Both the position numbers and the translations under genes were made by a program. DNA of 64,000 bases. Origin: Thermomicrobiales bacterium (GTDB taxonomy: Bacteria > Chloroflexota > Chloroflexia > Thermomicrobiales > CFX8). The notes beneath the pieces are model-generated. The model did no database searches and had not been told where the DNA came from. It saw nothing but the letters and a program-made list of their open reading frames with translations. Positions 7,824 to 63,574 of the stretch are shown here, piece by piece. Within the stretch, counting starts at the first letter, position 1. Every line of letters starts with the position of its first letter. The DNA lies in the NCBI GenBank assembly GCA_041390865.1, contig JAWKPC010000002.1:214022-278021 (forward strand), given 5' to 3'.

Positions 7824-9413
7824 CTACTCGTGAGATTCTGGATCGAGCGGCATATCGCGCGACGCGAGAATGGACCGGGCATCGTCCGAGCTGATCAGGA
7901 TGCCGTTTTCCTCGCCGCCGGTGGCATTGAAACTGCCGAGATCGTCGAGTCCGAATCGCTCGTGCTGTCCCCAGGTAAAGGGCAGAAACGCCCCCTCCGG
8001 GGCAGCATGATAGTAGCGGTTGTTCGCGCCACGGTTGTTCGAGGATTCAGCGGTGAGCTGCCCGGACCAATCTTCGAGCCAGGCAAGCATGTACGTGTTC
8101 TGCGACCAGTCGGTCATCAGGACAATGACGTTGTCACGGACCTGATTGTTCACAACATCAGTGTAACCATCGCGCGCCTGGGAGATCATCGAGATGCCGT
8201 CCCCATTCCAGGCGACGACGTTGCCGGTTACCTCGGTATCCCGGCAATTCTGGCAGACGAATCCACCGCCAAAGCCCCAGTCGGTGAAGCCCCAGCCGTT
8301 TTCCCAGATCTGGTTGTCGACAATCCGGCCGAACCGGCTGATCTCGTAGAGGATTCCGTAGCGGCGGTTGTGATGGACGCGGTTCTGCTCGATCGAGACA
8401 TGATCGCTCTCGACATCGCACCAGATACCTGCAGCATTGTTGTCAAAGACCTCGTTCTGGTGGACGACGGAACGAGCGAGGCCGGAGAGCTTCATGCCGC
8501 CGGCTTCCCAGCCCCCCTCAAAATCCTCGGTGTTATTGGAATGGACGCGGTTGTGAGCGATCTCGACGTCCCACGCGAACCAGCTGTGAATACCCATCCG
8601 GCCGCCGTAGGCGATCTCATTGCCGAGGATCTTGAGGTTGCCGCCTTCGCGAATCGAGATGACCGCCATATGGGCATGGAGCAGGGTATTGCCCTGGACC
8701 GTCCAGTTCGAGAACCGGCCGTTGCTCAACGCACCCTCGTGAAGACGGTCCGCGGCATGACGCATCGTGAATCCCTGAATCGTGATGCCGTCGGAAGCGC
8801 TGATAATCCACGCCGTTCGCGTCGTGACTTCGACGTTGCCGGAGGCCGGATCGTCCGCCAGGACGATCTCGCCGGCGGAGTTGACGGCGAACTGCCCCTG
8901 GACCGGGAGACCTTCAACCTGGTAGAGCGGATTCCCGTCGATGAATACCTGATGCGGCCAGTTGCAGCGGCCGTTGCTTCCGTCGCGGCACCATTCACCG
9001 GTGATCTCGAACTGCGGCGCGCCACCGTGATACCAGTGTTCTCCGCGGCGTTCCCAGCCGCTGGACCAGATGTCGCTGCCGCGAATCTCGGCCCCCGGCT
9101 CTCCGATGATGGTGAGCGGCTTGTCGATGACGGCGGTTTCACGATAGATCCCGCGTGGAATGGTGAGGACAGAATCTGGCGCGGCAGCGTCGATGCGTTT
9201 CTGCAGCGCGCCAGGCGGCATCTCCTGCGGAGGAGCTTCCTCAGCCTGCGGCGACGTCGAACTGCGGTTCAACGAGCCGGCGCGTTCTTCGGCGGTCGCC
9301 TGGAATGGCAGCGCCAACAGCAAACAGAATGCGGCCAGAAACACCCGCCATGGATGAAGCCACCTGGTCATGTTCGTCCCCCGAACCCGAAGCAGCGAGC
9401 GCGCTCTGCGCAT
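7824..9413 (-). CDS. Secreted right-handed parallel beta-helix (PbH1) protein, putative polysaccharide-active enzyme (paralog A)
   Basis: Signal peptide WRVFLAAFCLLLALPFQATA. The likely start is ATG 9371, with 9413 as an alternative. The gene has repeated beta-helix turns and a conserved core GIWCDVESDHVSIEQNRVHHNRRYGILYEIS...VVAWNGDGISMISQ, shared with the two downstream paralogs. Confidence 0.8.
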   Translation of the reverse strand: MRRARSLLRVRGTNMTRWLHPWRVFLAAFCLLLALPFQATAEERAGSLNRSSTSPQAEEAPPQEMPPGALQKRIDAAAPDSVLTIPRGIYRETAVIDKPLTIIGEPGAEIRGSDIWSSGWERRGEHWYHGGAPQFEITGEWCRDGSNGRCNWPHQVFIDGNPLYQVEGLPVQGQFAVNSAGEIVLADDPASGNVEVTTRTAWIISASDGITIQGFTMRHAADRLHEGALSNGRFSNWTVQGNTLLHAHMAVISIREGGNLKILGNEIAYGGRMGIHSWFAWDVEIAHNRVHSNNTEDFEGGWEAGGMKLSGLARSVVHQNEVFDNNAAGIWCDVESDHVSIEQNRVHHNRRYGILYEISRFGRIVDNQIWENGWGFTDWGFGGGFVCQNCRDTEVTGNVVAWNGDGISMISQARDGYTDVVNNQVRDNVIVLMTDWSQNTYMLAWLEDWSGQLTAESSNNRGANNRYYHAAPEGAFLPFTWGQHERFGLDDLGSFNATGGEENGILISSDDARSILASRDMPLDPESHE

Positions 9414-9560
9414 TCAGCCTGAGCCTACGCGAACCGTAGATTGTTCTTTCCGGTTCCCCAACCGTCGAAGAAAAGCCTACTCCGGTTCCTGGAGGCTCGC
9501 AACAGGATGAGCGTACTGCTCTTCCAGGACCAGAGAGCCGTTTCCATGACCGCCGTACTT

Positions 9561-9636: not shown

Positions 9637-11883
9637 CTAGAGTCCAGATTCCGCGAGAATCTGATTCTTCTGTTCCGTTGTCAGATAGCTGCTGCCGGTC
9701 CCGCCCGGTGTCCGGGCAAAATCGGCAAGCCTCCAGTACGGGGTGTCTTTCCAGCGCCAGCGCAGCTCTGAACCATCCGGCGTATCGAACCAGAAGCGGT
9801 TGTTCTGTCCCCGATTGTTCGAACCCTGAGACGTAAGCGGTCCGTTCCAGTCCTCCAGCCAGGCCATTGCATAGGTGTTCCAGCCGCTGTCATGAGACAT
9901 GATGATGACGTTGTCGTGGACGTAGTTCTCGGTGACGTCGTTCCACTGCGAGCCGCGATTCTGCGAGATGATCGAGATGCCGTCCTCATTCCAGGCGACG
10001 ACGTTGTCGTAGACCTCGGTGTCTTTCGAGTTCTGCAGCACGATCCCGGCACCGAAGCCCCAGGCATCGAAGCCGCCGCCGTTGTTGTAGATGACGTTGC
10101 CGTGGATCCGGCCTCGGAAGGAGAGTTCGAACAGGACGCCCTGACGGGCGTTGTGATGGAGCCGGTTGTTGCGAATCGTGATGTCGGTGCTCGAGACATC
10201 AGACCAGACGCCCGGGCCGTTGTTGTTGAAGATCTCATTCCCCTCGATCACGACGTTTCGAGTCTGTTGGGACGAGCTGCTCATCTTGATCCCGCCGGCT
10301 TCCCAACCGGGATCGAATCGACCTGCCTGATTGCTCCCGGAGATGCTGTTGCCGGAGACAGTGCCCGAATCCACGGCCTCGAGCCGAATACCGAGCTGCC
10401 CACTGCCACGAATGTCGTTGTCCAGGATGCGGATATTCGATCCCTGACGGATGTCGATGCTAACGGCGCCGGCATCGCGGAACGTGTTGCCTCGGATCGT
10501 CCAGTCGCTATAGCCGTTGTTCCTCAAACCACCGAACTGGCTGGAGTTCGAGGTGTTGAGGAACTCGAAGCCCTCGATCGTCACGCCGTTCGCGAAGCCG
10601 ACTATCCAGGTATTCCGGCTCTCACCGTCGATGACCGCGCCAGGTTCGCCGCGCAAGGTTATCGGCTTCGAGATGGAGATCGATTCCCGGTAGACGCCTG
10701 CCGGGACAACGACGGTCGAACCCGGAGCGGCGGAATCGACCAGCGCCTGGATGCTCGCCGGCTGTGTAGGAGTTGTCGGAGTAGCTGTTGCCGTGGCAGT
10801 GGGAGCAGGGGTCGCGGTTGCCGTCGGCGTCGGATTCGCGGACCCGCTGGTTCGGATTACCTCGAACCCGCTCAGCTTCGGATAGTCGACGGCGCCCCTC
10901 GCAATAGCAATCTGAAGAACTCCGCCGGTGACATTCACCGGAACGTGCTTGTCGAGCGCAGTCATCGGAGCGGTCTCGCTCAGGATGTCGAAATCCGTCA
11001 GGACTCTTGCGCCGTTGAGCGAGACGTTGAACATGCGCTGGCCCGGATAGGAGAACCAGATCTCGGCAAAGAGCAAACGCACGTCGTAGCTGCCATTCTC
11101 GAGCGGAATCGAGTAGCTGAATTCTCCCCAGCGTTCGGAAGCGTAGAGGCCATCGTCCGCGGTTCCGGCGATCGAACTGTTTACCGCGTACGTTCCACCG
11201 CCCGAAGATCCGCTGTCAGCCTGCCAGGCCAGGCCGCGGCTGTCCGTCAGCGCTGGACCTCCCACATTTACGCGAACGACGCTCTGCCCGGGCTGTGCCG
11301 CAGTTGCCGAAGGCGTCGGTGATGGGGTGGAAGCCGGTTGAGTCGGCGCAACCGTTGACGTCGGCGTCACGGTCGGCGCGACGGTGGCGGTAGGCGTCGG
11401 CGATGGGGTACCGGTAACCGTCGGGACCGGCGTCGAGGTGGCAGTCGGTGTTGGAGCGGGCGTAGCCGTCGATGGGCTTTCGACGACGAATGTCCCGAGC
11501 ACCGCCTGCTCGATCATCGCACCATCACTCGTTACGGACGCTGCCACGGAGTGGGACCCGACCGAGACAGCGGATGTGACCGGGATCGTGGTCTCAAAGC
11601 TTGCGCCGCGATAGCGAGAGACGCTGACATCACTCCAACGATCGACCTCGACGCCGTCGACGAGAACGGCCACGTCAAAGGCGAGAGCCTCCAGCCCGCG
11701 CCCGGACAGATCGACGCTAACCCGCACGGTATCGCCACGGGCAACCGTCGCCGGGGCAACGCCGCCGGAAACGTTGAGATTCACCCCGGCCGCCGCAGGA
11801 TCCGGCGACCACATGGCAGCAAAGAACATAGCCATCAATACTGCAACCAGCGTGAGCCGATTCCAGCGCGCAGAAAAAAGCAT
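9637..11883 (-). CDS. Secreted multidomain protein: Ig-like (CARDB-like) + PT-rich linker + malectin-like carbohydrate-binding domain + PT linker + right-handed beta-helix (paralog B)
   Basis: Signal/TM segment LTLVAVLMAMFFAAMW. The malectin-like block is VVRVNVGGPALTDSRGLAWQADSG...YASERWGEFSYSIPLENGSYDVRLLFAEIWFSYPGQRMFNVSLNG...FDI. The beta-helix core is GVWSDVSS..NRLHHNARQGVLFELS..VVAWNEDGISIISQ. Confidence 0.85.
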   Translation of the reverse strand: MLFSARWNRLTLVAVLMAMFFAAMWSPDPAAAGVNLNVSGGVAPATVARGDTVRVSVDLSGRGLEALAFDVAVLVDGVEVDRWSDVSVSRYRGASFETTIPVTSAVSVGSHSVAASVTSDGAMIEQAVLGTFVVESPSTATPAPTPTATSTPVPTVTGTPSPTPTATVAPTVTPTSTVAPTQPASTPSPTPSATAAQPGQSVVRVNVGGPALTDSRGLAWQADSGSSGGGTYAVNSSIAGTADDGLYASERWGEFSYSIPLENGSYDVRLLFAEIWFSYPGQRMFNVSLNGARVLTDFDILSETAPMTALDKHVPVNVTGGVLQIAIARGAVDYPKLSGFEVIRTSGSANPTPTATATPAPTATATATPTTPTQPASIQALVDSAAPGSTVVVPAGVYRESISISKPITLRGEPGAVIDGESRNTWIVGFANGVTIEGFEFLNTSNSSQFGGLRNNGYSDWTIRGNTFRDAGAVSIDIRQGSNIRILDNDIRGSGQLGIRLEAVDSGTVSGNSISGSNQAGRFDPGWEAGGIKMSSSSQQTRNVVIEGNEIFNNNGPGVWSDVSSTDITIRNNRLHHNARQGVLFELSFRGRIHGNVIYNNGGGFDAWGFGAGIVLQNSKDTEVYDNVVAWNEDGISIISQNRGSQWNDVTENYVHDNVIIMSHDSGWNTYAMAWLEDWNGPLTSQGSNNRGQNNRFWFDTPDGSELRWRWKDTPYWRLADFARTPGGTGSSYLTTEQKNQILAESGL

Positions 11884-12030
11884 AGAGCCCTCCTGAACAG
11901 AGAGATTTTGCGTTCATAGATTGTCAAATCTGCGGTTCCCCAACCGTCTTGTCTGGCAGGATACGCCAGGGTAAGCGAACAATCAACCATGCGTAGATAG
12001 TTCGTGACCTTGCTGCCCGGATTTCCCGAG

Positions 12031-12065
12031 CACAAAGAACCCCGCCCGGACGAATCCGGGCGGGG
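12031..12065 (-). terminator. Rho-independent terminator downstream of 12096-14450
   Basis: An 11-bp stem CCCCGCCCGGA / TCCGGGCGGGG (12040-12065) with loop CGAA, followed on the minus strand by TTCTTTGTG. Confidence 0.65.
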
Positions 12066-12095: not shown

Positions 12096-14450
12096 CTACA
12101 GTCCAGCGCTGGCAAGCACCTGATTCTTCTGCGAGTTTGTCAGGTTCTGGCTGCCCTGGCCGCCGGGCGAGGTACTGAAGTTACTGGCGGTCCAGTAGCC
12201 TTCGTCAACCCAGCGGAAGCGCAGCTCAGAGCCTTCAGGTGTCGAGAACCAGAACTTGTTGTTATAGCCCCGATTGTTCGACCCGGAATTGTCGAGCGCG
12301 CCATTCCAGTCTTCGAGCCATGCCATCGCGTAGGTGTTCCAGCCACCATCATGGTTGGCGATGATCGTATTGTCGTGAATCGTGTTGCCGGTCACGTTGT
12401 TCCAGCGCGACTCGCCGCGATTCTGAGAGATCACTGTGATTCCATCAGGATTCCAGGCAACGATGTTGTTGTAAACCTCGGTATCGCTGGAGTTCTGGAC
12501 CATGATTCCGGCTCCAAAGCCCCAGGCGTCGAAGCCTGTCGCGTTGTTGTAGACGACGTTGCCATGAATCCGGCCACCGAAGGACAGTTCGTAGATAATT
12601 CCTGCCCGGCTATTGTGGTGGACGCGGTTGTTGCGGATCTCGATATCCTGGCCATCGACGTCGATCCAGATGCCCGGACCGTTGTTGTCGAAGGCCTCGT
12701 TGTTCTCGATCACCAGGTTGCGGACGCCGCCGTAGTTGCCGGTGATCTTCATCCCGCCGGCTTCCCAGCCCGGATCGAGGTTCTTCGTGTTGTTGCCCGA
12801 GGTCTTGTTGCCCCGGATCGTGCCGCTACCGACGCTCTCGACGCGGATGCCGACGTTGCCGGAGCGGGTCACGGTGTTGTTCTCGATCAGATGGCCGGAG
12901 CCCTGCTTGATGTCGATCGCCGCGTTTCCAGCGTCGCGGAACGTGTTATTCCGGATCGTCCAGTTGCTGTAGCCGTCATTCGACAGGCCGCCATGGTACT
13001 GCGGCTGGTTCGAGTTGATGAACGTGAAGCCTTCGATCGTGACGTTGTTGGCCTGCCCAACGATCCAGCGGTCGCGGTTCTCGCCGTCGACGATGACGCC
13101 GGGATCAGCGATAAGCGTGATCGGCTTGTTGATGTAGATCTTCTCGCGATACGTGCCGGCCGGAACTCGTACGGTCGCGTTCGGGCTCGCGGCATCGATC
13201 ATCGCCTGGATCGTCGTGCCCGGTGTTGCGGTCGACGTCGGTGAGGGGGTCGGCGAGGGCGTTGCTGTCGGAGACGGGGTAGCCGTGGGAGATGGGGACG
13301 GCTGCGGCGTTGCGGTCGGGCCGTCCGTCGGAACCTGTAGCGCGTCAGACTTCAACAGCTCGATGCCGCTCAGCTTGGGCTCATCGACCGGCGCCGATGG
13401 CATCGTAATGCGGAGCTTGCCGTCGGTCACCGTAACGGGAACGATCCGGTCAAGAGCGGACATGCGAGCGGTTTCCGACAGGATGTCGAGATTCGAGATG
13501 GCCGGCTGTCCGTTGACGTAGACGCTGAAGATACGCTCGCCGGCGTTGTGGAACCAGACCTCGGCAAAGAGCAGCCGCAGGTCGTAGGCGCCGTTCTCGA
13601 CATCGAATGTGTAATTGAACGTGCCCCAGCGCTCGCTCTGGTAGACGGTGTCGTTCACCGTCCCAGCGATCGGATCGGTGACGCTGTAGGCAGCGCCACC
13701 GGAAAAGTTGGTGTCCGCTTGCCAGGTCAGGCCGCGGCTATCAACGAACGACGGCCCACCGGCATTGACCCGGAGGATGCTCGAAGAGTTGTCCGGATGC
13801 TGCATCGGCGGTGCTTCCGGCTCGTCAGTTTCGGTCGCGGTCGCGGTAGGAGACGGTTCGGTCGTCGCCGTTGCGGTTGGCGGAACCTCGGTTGCGGTCG
13901 CAGTCGGCGGGACCTGCGTTGCAGTTGCCGTCGGCGGAACCCGGGTTGCGGTCGCGGTGGGAGGAACATCCGTCGGCGTCGGCTCTGGAGCCTCGTCGCC
14001 AACGACTTCGAGGGTCGCAGCATTCCGCGCGTAGGCTACAAGGAAGTTGCCGTAGCGGACGCTGACATTGACACGGTAATTATCGCCTTCGGCAGCATTG
14101 TCAGGAACATTGAACTTCGTCTTGAAGCTGGAGACCCGACCGTACATCGACAGCCGGACATTCTGCCAGCTACCGGTCTTCAACGTCTCATCGTTACCAT
14201 CGACGACGTCGACCTGTACGGATACGGGAGCTGAAAACCGCGTAGCGCTGAGGTTCAGCTCAACGACGGCAGTGTCGCCCGGTTCGGCCTTGTTCGGAGA
14301 GAACTCGGCTTCGATATTGATCTGTCTCGTTCGCGCTTCTGCCGGTCCTGGGAGGAGGGGAAGAATGAGCGCCGAGAGTATGATGACGATCAGCACACGC
14401 ACGACGTTGTCGATGCGCGCAATTGAGCGCACGAGTGGCATAACGACCAC
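12096..14450 (-). CDS. Secreted multidomain protein: Ig-like + PT-repeat linker + malectin-like domain + PT linker + right-handed beta-helix (paralog C)
   Basis: Same architecture as 9637-11883. Malectin block: ILRVNAGGPSFVDSRGLTWQADTN...YQSERWGTFNYTFDVENGAYDLRLLFAEVWFHNAGERIFSVYVNG. Beta-helix core: GIWIDVDGQDIEIRNNRVHHNSRAGIIYELS. The start is GTG 14450 or ATG 14441; the latter lies 10 nt after a GAGG Shine-Dalgarno sequence. Confidence 0.85.
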   Translation of the reverse strand: MVVMPLVRSIARIDNVVRVLIVIILSALILPLLPGPAEARTRQINIEAEFSPNKAEPGDTAVVELNLSATRFSAPVSVQVDVVDGNDETLKTGSWQNVRLSMYGRVSSFKTKFNVPDNAAEGDNYRVNVSVRYGNFLVAYARNAATLEVVGDEAPEPTPTDVPPTATATRVPPTATATQVPPTATATEVPPTATATTEPSPTATATETDEPEAPPMQHPDNSSSILRVNAGGPSFVDSRGLTWQADTNFSGGAAYSVTDPIAGTVNDTVYQSERWGTFNYTFDVENGAYDLRLLFAEVWFHNAGERIFSVYVNGQPAISNLDILSETARMSALDRIVPVTVTDGKLRITMPSAPVDEPKLSGIELLKSDALQVPTDGPTATPQPSPSPTATPSPTATPSPTPSPTSTATPGTTIQAMIDAASPNATVRVPAGTYREKIYINKPITLIADPGVIVDGENRDRWIVGQANNVTIEGFTFINSNQPQYHGGLSNDGYSNWTIRNNTFRDAGNAAIDIKQGSGHLIENNTVTRSGNVGIRVESVGSGTIRGNKTSGNNTKNLDPGWEAGGMKITGNYGGVRNLVIENNEAFDNNGPGIWIDVDGQDIEIRNNRVHHNSRAGIIYELSFGGRIHGNVVYNNATGFDAWGFGAGIMVQNSSDTEVYNNIVAWNPDGITVISQNRGESRWNNVTGNTIHDNTIIANHDGGWNTYAMAWLEDWNGALDNSGSNNRGYNNKFWFSTPEGSELRFRWVDEGYWTASNFSTSPGGQGSQNLTNSQKNQVLASAGL
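13863..13970 (-). repeat. About four tandem 27-bp coding repeats (VPPTATATx)
   Basis: The protein reads DVPPTATATR VPPTATATQ VPPTATATE VPPTATAT. The periodicity is visible in the DNA as ggcggaacc..gttgcggtcgc units. Confidence 0.8.
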
Positions 14451-14494
14451 ACCTCACGTCTGTCTATGCGAGGAGTCAGTGGCACTGACGTGGT

Positions 14495-14605
14495 TCCTCG
14501 CTCGGTTTCGGCAGCCCGGCTATCCCAATCGAGGGACCCGTGGCTTTGCGCCCCCGCCTCACAGCGGGTTTGCCCTTCTCGACCCGGCAAACGAGCCGTG
14601 GTCTG
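14495..14605 (-). promoter_or_regulatory. c-di-GMP-I (GEMM-I) riboswitch-like aptamer in the 5' leader of 12096-14450
   Basis: The minus strand reads GAGAAGGGCAAACCCGCUGUGAGGCGGGGGCGCAAAGCCACGGGUCCCUCGAUUGGGAUAGCCGGGCUGCCGAAACCGAGCG. This contains GGCAAAC plus a hairpin whose loop holds a GNRA-type GUGA, the CGCAAAGC core, and ACGGGUC...GAUAGCCGGGCUGCC. All are hallmark GEMM-I blocks as I recall the consensus. No covariance-model search was run. Confidence 0.75.
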
Positions 14606-15145
14606 GATTCAATTGTCAGGTAGTCACGCGCAGAAGATAATGGCCGGTAGCGCTACTCTTCTCGAACAGACGTAGTGCCCCAGTACCATGATGGATCGGA
14701 ATGTCGAAGTCATTGCCCGTTTGGCAATGATTTGGAACGCGCTGATGGTTAGCATCAAGCTATGATTCGGGGCGAAATCCGGCCCGCCCGAGAGTCACGA
14801 AGTACCCAGCCGAGCGTACCGGGGCTCTGATCTAACCCCGCTTCCTGCGCCACTATTCGTCGTAGAAACTGATGCTGGCATCACCTCTGGCCGGTCGCTT
14901 GACGCGGAGATATAACTCTCTGGCGATCCGGTTACGCAACGGCAAGGAGCGGAGAGTGCTTCGAGACACCCGCAACCGGCGTCGCGTCTGTCGTCGCGTT
15001 CGGATCGGAACCTGCCCCGGACCAGGCTACCGGGCGCCCGGAAGACGCCGTGTTGTCGCAGGAGAATGGTTCATTCCGGACATCCAACCTGAAAGATGGA
15101 GATCGCCGACAGGCGCGGGACGCCAGTTCCGGGTCAACGTCCTGA

Positions 15146-60201: not shown

Positions 60202-63200
60202 TCACGCATGCTGGCCGGCCGGCATTTGCGGCGTCGTCCCGCTCCCTCCGTGGCCCTTATCGAAGCGGTCCTTGTAGTGCTGGTAGATGTAGGAGCTAAC
60301 CAGCAGCAGGATGCCAAGGCCGATGAAGGACAGCACCCGGTACGAGGTGTCGAGGGACGCCAGATCGACGATAAAGACTTTGATCGTTGCGAGTGCCAGC
60401 AGCGCGAGTCCGAAGATCCGCACGGGTGGGCCAAACCGCAGGATACCGGCAGCAAACGCCGTACCACCAAGGGTGGCCCAGAGGATCGACAGGGCGACCT
60501 GTGCCTGCTTCTGGAGCGTTGCGAGGGTGATGGCAGCGTCCCCGACCCGGCTCTGGAATTCATCGACGACGGCGACGGAGAGGAGGTAGACCACCAGGGC
60601 TCCAGCCAGAGCCATGATCCAGCGGACTGTCTCCGATCGTTGACGGTAGAGCCAGGCCGTCAGACCGAGAGCGATGATCATCGCGCCGATGGCCGCAGTC
60701 GCTCCACTCCAGAGCAGCGGGTGATCGATCGCAACCGAGTCGCGAACAACCAGGCGCGTCAGGGGTGCGATGGAGTAGACGATGAATAGCAGTCCGCCGC
60801 CGAGCAACGTACCTGCTGATGCCAGGTAGGCTTTCTGTCCCGCTGGCTCCCGCTGGCTCAGGAGTACCAGACCGATGGCCAGGGCGGACCACATGACGAC
60901 CACTCCCGCGTGCGAGAGTTCGAAGATCATCAGATAGGCGGCGATGGCGAATGCCGCCACCCGCGTACCCGTGCCAAACTGCCAGTGGCGGGTGATGGTC
61001 GAAACTACTCCGGCGGCAGCAATCAGGAACATGGCTGCCAGCGTGCGTTCGTCGGTGAAGGGAATATCCGGCAACGCGTTCGGGTCGATCTCGGACAGCG
61101 GCATCTCGAAGGTGAAGGCATGGAGGATCGACAGCACTGCCGCGCCGATTGCGGGGATATAGAGGCCGTTGCTGAAGGTAGTGACGGCTTCGTCGACCAG
61201 CACCGGCCAGCGCTGAAGCGCGATTGCCAGGACGAAGATCGCCGACCAGGTTCCGAGCACAGCCACTCCCGACAGCTCGAAGGGGATTGCGTACATCGCC
61301 AGCGACATGGCGGCGATTGCGAGCGCCACCCGGACAATACGCCTGGTTATCCAGTATCCGGATATCGCGGCCGCAGCCAGCAGCATTGCCAGGCCCAACC
61401 CATCGAGGTTGAGGAACGGCCAGGTGCTCTGAAGGTCATCGCCGACCTGCAGCGCCTCGAGTGGATACTCGAAAAGCGCAAGGTGGCCGATCGCAAGGGC
61501 AGCCGGAATCACCGCGTAGAGACCCACGTGAAGGTGCTGGCGATGGCCATAGATCCAGGCGAGGGCGACTGCTACCGCGGTCCAGGCCGCGACGACGGCG
61601 ACTCCCGATAGTTCGTAGGGGACCGCGTACACGATCAGTGAGAGTCCGACGAAGGCAAGCGCGGTTCGGACCTGTGGCATAGCAATGAAGTAGCCGGACA
61701 CGGCCAGGGCCGCCAGGAGGAAGGCTAGAGTGGAGCCATTCGCGTTCAGGAAGGGCCAGCTGCTCTGGAGATCCTCACTTGCGATCAGACCGAACGGATA
61801 TTCGAACATCAGGAGGTGAGTGATAGCCAGGATGCCGAGGACGGTTGCGTAGACGCCGGCGAAGCGGTGCTTGCGCAGTCCGAAGATCCAGGCAAGCGCG
61901 GCTGCTTCGGCTGCCCAGCCAACCGGCACGACCGGCCCGCCGAACTGGACGGGAATGGCCATAGTGAATGCGGCAACGCCGGTGCCGGCCGCCAGCATAC
62001 CGAAGGGGTGATACTCACCGCGGTCACGGAGGAAGTAGAGGCCGATCAGGCCGTGACCAAGAGCTGCGCCAACCAGGAAGAGCCCGCGCCACGGTTCGAG
62101 ATCACCATCGAGAATGACGAATCCCATGCCGACCAGGTAGACGGCATTGATCATCAGTAAGGTGGCCGAGGTCACCCTGATGCGCTGGCTCGGAACGCGG
62201 AATTCTTCGCCACCAGCCGCGATGGCGTTGAGCGACCAGAAGCCGGTCAGGACGAGCAGGGCGATAGCCGCGTTAATGTCACTGACCAGGAGATCGCTCA
62301 CTTGAGGAACTGCAAGGAAGTAGGCGAGCGGTGGCAGCCAGCGCCAGGTCTGGAAGAGGGCGATGCTCGTCGTGCCGATCAGGATAGTGCCAACGAAGAA
62401 GGCTGTCGGTAAATCGGATTGCGCTCCGAGGAGCGGCGGTGCAACCAGCGCGGCGATCAGACCGTAGCCTGCGACAATCTGGGAGCTCGCCCGGACTGCG
62501 ATTACCGCTGCGGCCATCGCGCTGACCAGGATGGCCAGCAGGCCAATAGGCACCGAGACAAGGTCGTAGAGACGCGTCGCCGCCAGCAACGCGATGTTCA
62601 TCACGCCAAGGCCGGTTGCCACCATCACATGACCGAAGATGCGTTCGCGCCGCTCGAAGAACCAGGCACCGGTCGACAGCATGACGGTAGCGGCAGTCAT
62701 GCCGATGACGATCCGAGCGGATGGCCCGATCCAGCCGCGGCTGAAGGCGAGACTCAGGAAGAAGATAGAGCCGACCAGGATGGCGAGGCCGCCGGTCCAG
62801 GCCAGCACCCGACCGCTGAGGAGATCTTCGAGATCGAACTCCGTGCGCTCTCGTTCAGGGAGCGGCGGGAAGAGCGGTTCGACCGGTTGCCAAACCTGTT
62901 CGGGGACGGCAATGATCTCGGGAACGATTGGCTCTTCTACGGAAGCAGGCTCAGGGATGCTGACGCCCAGGGGAATCAGCACCGGCTCCACCGGTGCAGG
63001 CGGTTCAGCGATGATCGGGGTAACGGGAACGGCGACCGGTTCGGGGGTTTCTGATACGGACGGTGCGGTTTCGATCCCGGGAACGCGTTCTTCGACCAGC
63101 CGCAGGCGCTGATCGAGATCGCTTACTGTATTTTCGATGTACTGCAACTGCGTCTGGATCTGACCAATTGTCCGGGCAGACAATACTGAGATACCGGCCC

Positions 63201-63369
63201 GCGCTCGTTCCTGTTCGAGAAGTCTCTGATAGGGGATCCCGGTGCTCTGCGATCGTCGCTCCAGTTCTTGCTGGAGAGCGGTGCGAGGCCGTCCGCAGTT
63301 CGCACAGAAGTCGGCTGTGGACGGAACTTGATGACCGCAGGTGGGACAGATAACGGTGTTCATGGCCAT
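60202..63369 (-). CDS. Very large polytopic membrane protein, DUF2339-like, with N-terminal zinc-ribbon and coiled-coil
   Basis: ATG 63369 opens MAMNTVICPTCGHQVPSTADFCANCGRP (CxxC..CxxC). A coiled-coil (QLQYIENTVSDLDQRLRLVEERV) and a Pro-rich spacer follow, then about 30 TM helices in repeated units. This is the layout I associate with DUF2339. Confidence 0.8.
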   Translation of the reverse strand: MAMNTVICPTCGHQVPSTADFCANCGRPRTALQQELERRSQSTGIPYQRLLEQERARAGISVLSARTIGQIQTQLQYIENTVSDLDQRLRLVEERVPGIETAPSVSETPEPVAVPVTPIIAEPPAPVEPVLIPLGVSIPEPASVEEPIVPEIIAVPEQVWQPVEPLFPPLPERERTEFDLEDLLSGRVLAWTGGLAILVGSIFFLSLAFSRGWIGPSARIVIGMTAATVMLSTGAWFFERRERIFGHVMVATGLGVMNIALLAATRLYDLVSVPIGLLAILVSAMAAAVIAVRASSQIVAGYGLIAALVAPPLLGAQSDLPTAFFVGTILIGTTSIALFQTWRWLPPLAYFLAVPQVSDLLVSDINAAIALLVLTGFWSLNAIAAGGEEFRVPSQRIRVTSATLLMINAVYLVGMGFVILDGDLEPWRGLFLVGAALGHGLIGLYFLRDRGEYHPFGMLAAGTGVAAFTMAIPVQFGGPVVPVGWAAEAAALAWIFGLRKHRFAGVYATVLGILAITHLLMFEYPFGLIASEDLQSSWPFLNANGSTLAFLLAALAVSGYFIAMPQVRTALAFVGLSLIVYAVPYELSGVAVVAAWTAVAVALAWIYGHRQHLHVGLYAVIPAALAIGHLALFEYPLEALQVGDDLQSTWPFLNLDGLGLAMLLAAAAISGYWITRRIVRVALAIAAMSLAMYAIPFELSGVAVLGTWSAIFVLAIALQRWPVLVDEAVTTFSNGLYIPAIGAAVLSILHAFTFEMPLSEIDPNALPDIPFTDERTLAAMFLIAAAGVVSTITRHWQFGTGTRVAAFAIAAYLMIFELSHAGVVVMWSALAIGLVLLSQREPAGQKAYLASAGTLLGGGLLFIVYSIAPLTRLVVRDSVAIDHPLLWSGATAAIGAMIIALGLTAWLYRQRSETVRWIMALAGALVVYLLSVAVVDEFQSRVGDAAITLATLQKQAQVALSILWATLGGTAFAAGILRFGPPVRIFGLALLALATIKVFIVDLASLDTSYRVLSFIGLGILLLVSSYIYQHYKDRFDKGHGGSGTTPQMPAGQHA

Positions 63370-63574
63370 GCTCGCGATCGATTGGAAGAATGTGCCGAAA
63401 AGCTCGCTAGCGTTTACTTGCCGTGAGACCACACAGGTGTCAAATCGTGCTTGAATCATCCTCCAGGTTCGGCGACAATCGCATTGAATTCAGTCTCAAT
63501 TCGTTACAGCATCGCTACAATCGACGCCGCAAGCGGCATCGGGTAGAAAGCCAGTAGAAGCGGGATGCCTCGCA

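Follow-up and report, generated by a model that had tools for sequence, protein, structure and literature searches.

A predicted canonical c-di-GMP class I riboswitch with a candidate translational expression platform precedes a malectin/beta-helix exoprotein gene in an uncultured Chloroflexia genome

The 64-kb window (the whole stretch of DNA that was analyzed) contains three tandem paralogous genes on its minus strand, at 14441..12096, 11883..9637, and 9413..7824, the first of which encodes a product composed of a signal/anchor peptide, an N-terminal domain, PT-rich linkers, a malectin domain, and a C-terminal right-handed beta-helix. Pfam recognizes Malectin (8e-30), Beta_helix (9e-24), and NosD in this product; a sequence search of the PDB matched the malectin domain only, the NosD/beta-helix matches from NCBIfam were all sub-threshold, and no database record of an identical copy of the 781-aa sequence was found. 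Residues 400-781 were modeled with AlphaFold (mean pLDDT of 84, pTM of 0.88), and the solved folds nearest to the beta-helix model, as ranked by Foldseek, are those of the mannuronan C5-epimerases AlgE4 and AlgE6 (TM ~0.6, 15% identity), with the Vibrio polysaccharide lyase RbmB, PL6 alginate lyases, chondroitinase B, and AlgG also close by. Because these are its nearest folds, the product is most likely an enzyme or a binder that would act on an acidic exopolysaccharide, and a lyase, an epimerase, and an adhesin all appear equally compatible with comparison at the level of the fold. The PT-rich linker at 13800-13960 (minus strand, residues ~160-215) contains near-perfect repeats of (R/Q/E)VPPTATAT in three copies, and a second PT/PS linker precedes the beta-helix; linkers of this sort are typical of secreted multidomain glycan-active proteins.

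The untranslated leader of this first gene carries the element that is the subject of this report, whose parts are collected in Table 1. A search with Rfam cmscan matched the minus strand at 14583..14506 to RF03167 (c-di-GMP-I-GGC, clan CL00126) with 71.9 bits, an E value of 4.6e-15, and model positions 1-80 of 80 covered. The same match was recovered by a separate 300-base Rfam search, and it is the sole gathering-threshold match from the Rfam scan of the whole 64-kb window; at the aptamer site, one further model of clan CL00126 reached its own gathering score in cmscan (the gathering scores are 59 bits for RF03167 and 35 bits for RF01051). A preliminary description of this DNA had recognized the blocks of a GEMM-I aptamer in the leader, and every block that it quoted lies on the minus strand with the sequence exactly as transcribed; the covariance-model check that it called for was positive, with a best model from the same clan as RF01051. 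No second match to the c-di-GMP-I clan occurs in the 64 kb, even at an E value of <=1, and therefore only one of the three paralogs carries the aptamer, as had already been stated. A block pattern built from the aptamer sequence likewise gave one match in the window and none in 100 shuffles. The aptamer sits on the gene's own strand, 64 nt 5' of the ATG (14441), a position common to the eight orthologs.

Table 1. Coordinates of the riboswitch leader, the gene that it precedes, and associated elements (window positions unless a locus is named)
Feature	Position	Strand	Remarks
GACAAT, -10-like box	14612..14617	-	ACAAT core invariant in 8/8 leaders
P0 hairpin, GACC-A-CGGC / GCCG-GGUC	14581..14603	-	Anti-P1; GGUC of the P1 5' strand lies within its 3' side
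c-di-GMP-I aptamer	14504..14585	-	Rfam match and covariation over 128 aptamers
P1	GGGUCG 14585..14580 with CGAAACC 14510..14504	-	Closing stem of the aptamer
GGCAAAC	14574..14568	-	Aptamer block
Hairpin CCCGCU/GGCGGG	14568..14563 with 14558..14553	-	P1b; GNRA loop GUGA at 14562..14559
CGCAAAGCC	14550..14542	-	Aptamer block
P2	14545..14513	-	Short
P2 distal stem, GUCCC/GGGAU		-	Aptamer block
AUAGCCGGGCUGCC	Ends at 14510	-	Aptamer block
Ligand-contact equivalents	G20 = g14574, A47 = a14547, C92 = c14511	-	From alignment to the Rfam model
Interhelical pair equivalents	C44 = c14550, G83 = g14520	-	Both columns invariant in 128 aptamers
G-A-GCGAG	14497..14503	-	5' arm of H (anti-anti-SD) and 3' strand of the P1 extension
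Hairpin H, GCGAGGA / UCCUCGC, inner GUCAG/CUGAC	14468..14501	-	No U-tract after it
CCUCGC, anti-Shine-Dalgarno (3' arm of H)	14468..14473	-	Complementary to GUGAGG; conserved in 8/8
GUGAGGUG, Shine-Dalgarno region	14450..14457	-	GAGGUG (14455..14450) invariant in 8/8 leaders
Regulated gene	12096..14441	-	781 aa; Pfam and structure model
Terminator-like hairpin 3' of regulated gene	12040..12065	-	11 bp, 10 of them G-C, then UUCUUUG
Core GGTTGGGGAACC in orthologous loci	L001 4093-4104, L002 4301-4312, L125 8469-8480, L126 8578-8589, L127 2674-2685		

A full-length alignment to the clan structure places the P1, P1a-P1b, and P2 helices in register, with a GUGA loop on the first hairpin and a P2 that is without the 11-nt receptor. 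In the Vc2 aptamer, G20, A47, and C92 are the three nucleotides that contact c-di-GMP, and the interhelical C-G pair is universally conserved (PMC4744006). Since this binding triad is present in the leader, c-di-GMP is the expected and most likely ligand. Judged by sequence and predicted structure, the element is a canonical c-di-GMP class I (GEMM-I) riboswitch, a further example of a well-known class, here in an uncultured Chloroflexia genome.

The best-scoring model could nevertheless be taken to mean that the element belongs to the c-di-GMP-I-GGC variant (RF03167) and has an altered ligand specificity, since its 71.9 bits clear the gathering score of 59. We read the meaning of "GGC" from the RF03167 consensus as printed by cmscan, in which ...GGGACGCGAAgCc... 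is aligned with ...GGGGCGCAAAGCC... of the window and the match line is blank at the consensus G. This variant-defining G is position 47 in Vc2 numbering, where the window carries A (CGCAAA versus CGCGAA in the model). Metagenome contigs were then scanned for the blocks in common, with either A or G (R) allowed at position 47, which yielded at least 120 stretches; among the matches listed, all 124 pattern-matched aptamers (121 metagenomic ones together with those of the window and of two related genomes, L001 and L002) have A at this position. When 20 of the A47 metagenome loci were submitted to Rfam, 18 scored best on RF03167, just as the window does, and the other 2 on RF01051; a related short-P2 aptamer (L038) reaches 62 bits on RF01051. 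Among 128 aligned aptamers, GAAA loops accompany UAAG-type receptors and GYGA loops accompany a short P2, and evidently what RF03167 rewards is the short-P2, GYGA-loop architecture, not the variant nucleotide. Because the variant's defining G47 is A here, we file the aptamer as ordinary c-di-GMP-I and consider the GGC identity hardly credible; the plain GEMM-I label first given to the leader was thus right, the GGC-defining G being absent and the contact nucleotides canonical. The assignment is an annotation trap: ordinary A47 aptamers whose P2 is short score higher on RF03167 than on RF01051, so that automated annotation will probably over-call the GGC variant and mislabel many canonical c-di-GMP-I riboswitches as belonging to it, with an altered pocket that they do not have.

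A second specificity variant can be addressed in the same manner. The c-AMP-GMP (GEMM-Ib) riboswitches of Geobacter have the same fold and belong to the same clan, and in work of Kellenberger and of Nelson from 2015 they are said to carry A at position 20. The window instead has G (g14574), as do all of the 128 aptamers, and we rejected a c-AMP-GMP identity on this ground.

The 128 distinct aptamers were aligned, and base pairs were counted on the structure implied by the window sequence. Standard pairs occupy 90.6% of cells, compared with 25-45% after the 3' partners have been shifted by 1-3 columns, and cells with double changes number 394 versus 132 in shuffles; a score as high as the observed one was attained in none of 500 shuffles. 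These double changes are located in P1, P1b, and distal P2 (proximal P2 and P1a, being fixed by the search pattern, are uninformative), and the aptamer fold covaries strongly over these sequences. For 111 of the related aptamers, the first downstream open reading frames (ORFs) encode N-terminal-methylation (type IV pilin-like) proteins (n = 15), flagellar rod proteins (n = 3), sigma-70 factors (n = 3), peptidases, PKD/Big_9 surface proteins, beta-helix proteins (n = 2), one GGDEF protein, and one HD-type protein, which is the usual c-di-GMP-I (GEMM) gene set.

Three of the metagenomic loci carry more than one aptamer: two c-di-GMP-I aptamers lie back to back in L013 (871-1008, minus strand; 80 and 37 bits) and in L026 (1514-1651, plus strand; 79 and 37 bits), and in L082 two aptamers are ~750 nt apart (1450-1521 and 2204-2269).

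In the window itself, a motif search combined with Pfam analysis of the candidate and largest of the 51 ORFs found no GGDEF, EAL, HD-GYP, or PilZ genes, and the initial statement that the window has no GGDEF, EAL, or PilZ gene is not contradicted. One ORF with a GG[DE]EF motif and two with EALxR motifs were set aside, since Pfam identifies them as DUF2339, a MalT/LuxR-type regulator, and an EF-G-like GTPase; the DUF2339 case is a 1085-aa ORF (60202-63459, minus strand) with a GG[DE]EF-like motif that encodes a membrane protein with a zinc ribbon and no diguanylate cyclase.

Orthologs of the regulated gene were sought in two ways. When one genome per species was scanned with the protein as guide, the gene turned up in two Chloroflexia metagenome-assembled genomes (MAGs), L001 and L002, both of which have the aptamer at the same place and with A47. 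A protein search returned seven orthologs, five of them with full query coverage, and the aptamer is present on the contigs of all five orthologs from this search that were followed up. Full-length orthologs are 59-66% identical to the window protein (six scored). The aptamer is kept in 8/8 known orthologous leaders, from Chloroflexia MAGs and metagenomes, and across these eight loci the blocks of the aptamer and of the expression platform described below are near-invariant, while the upstream noncoding DNA and the hairpin loops have diverged. The gene order is conserved as well, running from a giant cadherin/Big_9 protein and an amidohydrolase through the riboswitch and the malectin/beta-helix gene to a beta-helix-only paralog, an unknown gene, a GT4 glycosyltransferase, a Bac_transf priming transferase, WecG, and an epimerase, such that the riboswitch gene stands at the edge or head of an exopolysaccharide locus. 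The ortholog in L002 (MAG CAVUYM010000034, 1653-4120) is broken into pieces in different frames, with an ORF that stops at 2630 and a riboswitch that is intact; it represents either a frameshifted assembly or a pseudogene.

On both sides of the aptamer, from P0 to the start codon, the eight leaders share a candidate expression platform. The RNAalifold consensus combines the aptamer, an extended P1 (UUYGCC with G-GCGAG), and a helix between the anti-Shine-Dalgarno sequence (anti-SD) and the Shine-Dalgarno sequence (SD), the latter consisting of CCUCGC and GUGAGG (pairs 181-186 with 201-206). The GAGGUG lies 8 nt before the start codon (7 nt in L127), which is ATG in the window (14441..14439) and in L126 and TTG in the other six. 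The conserved helices fall into two mutually exclusive sets, as follows.

(i) The first set consists of the 5' hairpin P0 and hairpin H and leaves the SD free. P0 folds in 8/8 leaders, with energies of -9.7 to -14.6 kcal/mol, and H forms in 8/8 orthologs if the RNA ends ahead of the SD (-12.7 to -18.1 kcal/mol).

(ii) The second set consists of P1, the P1 extension, and the anti-SD:SD helix and leaves the SD masked. In the extension, G-A-GCGAG pairs with C14586 and CGUUU at 14587..14591, as indicated by RNAalifold and duplex energies, and the 3' strand of P0 (UUUGCC) doubles as the partner for this extension.

In every ortholog, the energies of the three competing duplexes are similar (-9.6 to -16.2, -10.3 to -14.7, and -8.6 to -20.2 kcal/mol). 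Sequence changes within the platform include a single compensatory one in H (where the A-U of the window is G-C in the seven others), one-sided changes in the P1 extension that preserve its pairing (U-G to U-A in L125; C-G to U-G in the window and in L002), and a one-sided change of A-U to G-U in P0 of L002. Because the eight leaders are close relatives, with 75% mean column identity, the platform helices are supported mostly by conservation.

Parts of this platform had been noted in the preliminary description, which placed a GCGAGGA..UCCUCGC hairpin without a U-tract at 14471-14502. The hairpin is real, but it spans 14501..14468, and a terminator scan agrees with the lack of a U-tract in finding no intrinsic terminator site in 14300-15000. 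The accompanying proposal of a pairing between ACCACGUC and GACGUG holds to the extent that CACGUC (14492..14487) is complementary to GACGUG (14460..14455), but this pairing is absent from the orthologs; it is window-specific, and we dropped it as the conserved switch, the conserved anti-SD being CCUCGC, the 3' arm of H. P0 and the P1 extension are conserved switch elements beyond those first described. A pairing of CCCUCG in the P2 loop with the 5' arm of H was also discarded as specific to the window and absent from the orthologs.

How the two sets respond to formation of the aptamer was followed by constrained folding. With only the six core pairs of P1 forced, the minimum free energy (MFE) structures of most orthologs acquire the extension and the anti-SD:SD helix, most clearly in L001, L124, L125, L126, and L128, partially in L002, and not in the window. 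The switch is least clear-cut in the window itself because there the P1 core together with H is 4.6 kcal/mol more stable than P1 with its extension. The unconstrained MFE structures already mask the SD in 7/8 orthologs, with the 5' arm of H paired with codons 3-5 (CUCGUGC) and the anti-SD:SD helix formed inside this closure. In equilibrium folding, SD accessibility is ~0.17 with and without forced P1, and no consistent change in SD or AUG accessibility was seen between the two conditions, for which reason we dropped a purely thermodynamic model of the switch.

We judge it reasonably probable that this canonical c-di-GMP-I riboswitch controls translation by strand exchange and is OFF at high c-di-GMP. 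Of the two parts of this proposal, the level of control is most likely translation initiation: the leader lacks an intrinsic terminator, which favors a translational mechanism, as was originally suggested. The direction is probably OFF, although close to an even call. Without ligand, P0 would hold the 5' strand of P1, and H would close once its 3' arm had been transcribed, ~20 nt ahead of the SD, sequestering the anti-SD CCUCGC; the SD would then emerge free and the ribosome-binding site would be open. With c-di-GMP, P1 would form and zip into its extension before the 3' arm of H exists, pairing the 3' strand of P0 (UUYGCC) with the 5' arm of H (G-GCGAG) and thereby blocking H, so that CCUCGC would pair with GUGAGG, mask the SD, and turn the gene OFF. 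Because equilibrium folding gives no ligand-dependent opening of the SD, the OFF model depends on co-transcriptional kinetics.

The same aptamer and ligand could instead operate as an ON switch, in which the free 5' arm of H (GNGCGAG) would pair with codons 3-5 and bury both the SD and the start codon until, with c-di-GMP, the P1 extension takes this arm, the closing helix weakens, and ribosomes enter. This long-range closed structure is the unconstrained MFE structure in the 7/8 orthologs mentioned above (-28.8 to -34.4 kcal/mol for the platform alone), and activation would fit with the facts that c-di-GMP commonly induces matrix and adhesin genes and that this gene heads an exopolysaccharide locus. 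However, the anti-SD:SD helix persists in the model of the bound state, with the same SD accessibility of ~0.17 in both states, so that the ON model does not account for an opening of the SD; the window, L124, and L128 have mismatches in the closing helix; and the 5' arm would need a partner ~70 nt downstream, whereas H can form first. The coding-side strand, moreover, encodes conserved N-terminal residues, and its conservation could equally be at the level of the protein. We regard the ON direction as fairly unlikely.

That the leader is long and G+C-rich and has no intrinsic terminator speaks for another possibility, in which Rho-dependent termination or mRNA decay would be the main route of action of the aptamer and not direct masking of the SD. 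Secondary recruitment of Rho is common among translational riboswitches. The conserved anti-SD/SD pair and the invariant GAGGUG nevertheless point to the ribosome-binding site as the target, making Rho or decay as the principal route distinctly improbable. The little ligand dependence of the thermodynamic models could be what one would see in a decaying or non-switching relic, but the near-invariance of the aptamer and platform blocks in the eight loci, despite diverged upstream DNA and loops, renders such a relic very improbable.

With translational control in the OFF direction as the preferred reading, the limits of the regulated unit remain to be set out. At its 5' side, the GACAAT could serve as a -10 box, which would put the transcription start at ~14605-14603, at the foot of P0; a sigma-70 scan found no full promoter near the leader on the minus strand. 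Just 5' of P0 lies a conserved block, GTGACT-N4-CTGACAATTGA (14609-14627, minus strand), in which TGAC is repeated 10 nt apart. This block is possibly a -10 box combined with a regulator site, and no canonical -35 was found in its region.

At the 3' side, the riboswitch unit is probably monocistronic and ended by the terminator-like hairpin listed in Table 1; comparable GC-rich hairpins lie 3' of the orthologs in L001, L125, L127 (with a U7 tail), and L128. The regions upstream of both downstream paralogs have no similarity to the riboswitch leader, which rules out a riboswitch remnant there. They share an exact 16-mer, GACGGTTGGGGAACCG, at 11933-11948 and 9451-9466 (minus strand), ~65-70 nt from the start of the second gene and ~55 nt from that of the third, followed by (G)ACAATCTA. 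In five orthologous loci, the second beta-helix paralog likewise has the core of this 16-mer, GGTTGGGGAACC, on its 5' side (Table 1). The GACGGTTGGGGAACCG/GGTTGGGGAACC element looks like a separate conserved promoter or operator, and its GGAAC recalls ECF-sigma -35 boxes. Given the terminator-like hairpin and the different element upstream of the paralogs, control by the riboswitch is most likely confined to the first gene.

One full-length malectin/beta-helix paralog in the window (9637-11883, minus strand), 49% identical to the regulated gene, is an extra copy. L125 and L126 are without this paralog, and in them the regulated gene directly precedes the beta-helix-only paralog; the extra copy looks like a lineage-specific duplication without a copy of the riboswitch.

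Among known systems, the element most directly invites comparison with RF01051 and its type examples Vc2 and Vc1 of Vibrio cholerae. It resembles these in having a two-hairpin aptamer closed by P1 that contains GGCAAACC and CGCAAAGCC, the G20/A47/C92 triad, the interhelical C44-G83 pair, and a GNRA tetraloop on the first hairpin, as well as in its location in a 5' untranslated region and its association with a surface/exoprotein gene. It differs from them in its short P2 without the 11-nt GAAA receptor, in its GUGA loop (a GYRA-type sub-architecture that is common in metagenomes), in its Chloroflexia host, and in a translational-type platform with a 5' anti-P1 hairpin and a P1 extension. With the RF03167 variant it shares the best-scoring model, the short-P2 architecture, and the blocks GCCACGG and AGCCGGGCUGCC, but A in place of G at position 47 gives it a canonical binding pocket. 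Ligand-dependent masking of the ribosome-binding site, as proposed here, in place of sole reliance on a terminator is found in the translational c-di-GMP-I switches Vc2/tfoY (repression) and Vc1/gbpA (activation), and in Bc1 of B. thuringiensis the ribosome-binding site and AUG enter a stem upon addition of ligand (PMC11218506). None of Vc2/tfoY, Vc1/gbpA, and Bc1 has been described with the P0/P1-extension/hairpin-H arrangement.

A full-text search of the literature on c-di-GMP riboswitches in Chloroflexi returned incidental mentions only, and we know of no such riboswitch that has been experimentally characterized in this phylum. The element would offer a direct, testable c-di-GMP target in Chloroflexia, and one that connects the c-di-GMP signal with a malectin/beta-helix exoprotein whose gene lies next to an exopolysaccharide cluster. 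What takes it beyond an ordinary member of its class is the misleading RF03167 assignment, the conserved P0/P1-extension/hairpin-H arrangement, and the split regulation of adjacent paralogs. We tentatively advance a more specific scenario, which we consider possible but doubtful as a whole, in which the OFF switch acts on a secreted lyase- or epimerase-like beta-helix enzyme of exopolysaccharide while the paralogs are under separate input from the GGTTGGGGAACC promoter or operator. If this is true, two regulatory inputs would converge on a single family of enzymes that heads the exopolysaccharide locus, and matrix remodeling or dispersal would be wired directly to c-di-GMP at the RNA level in these Chloroflexia.
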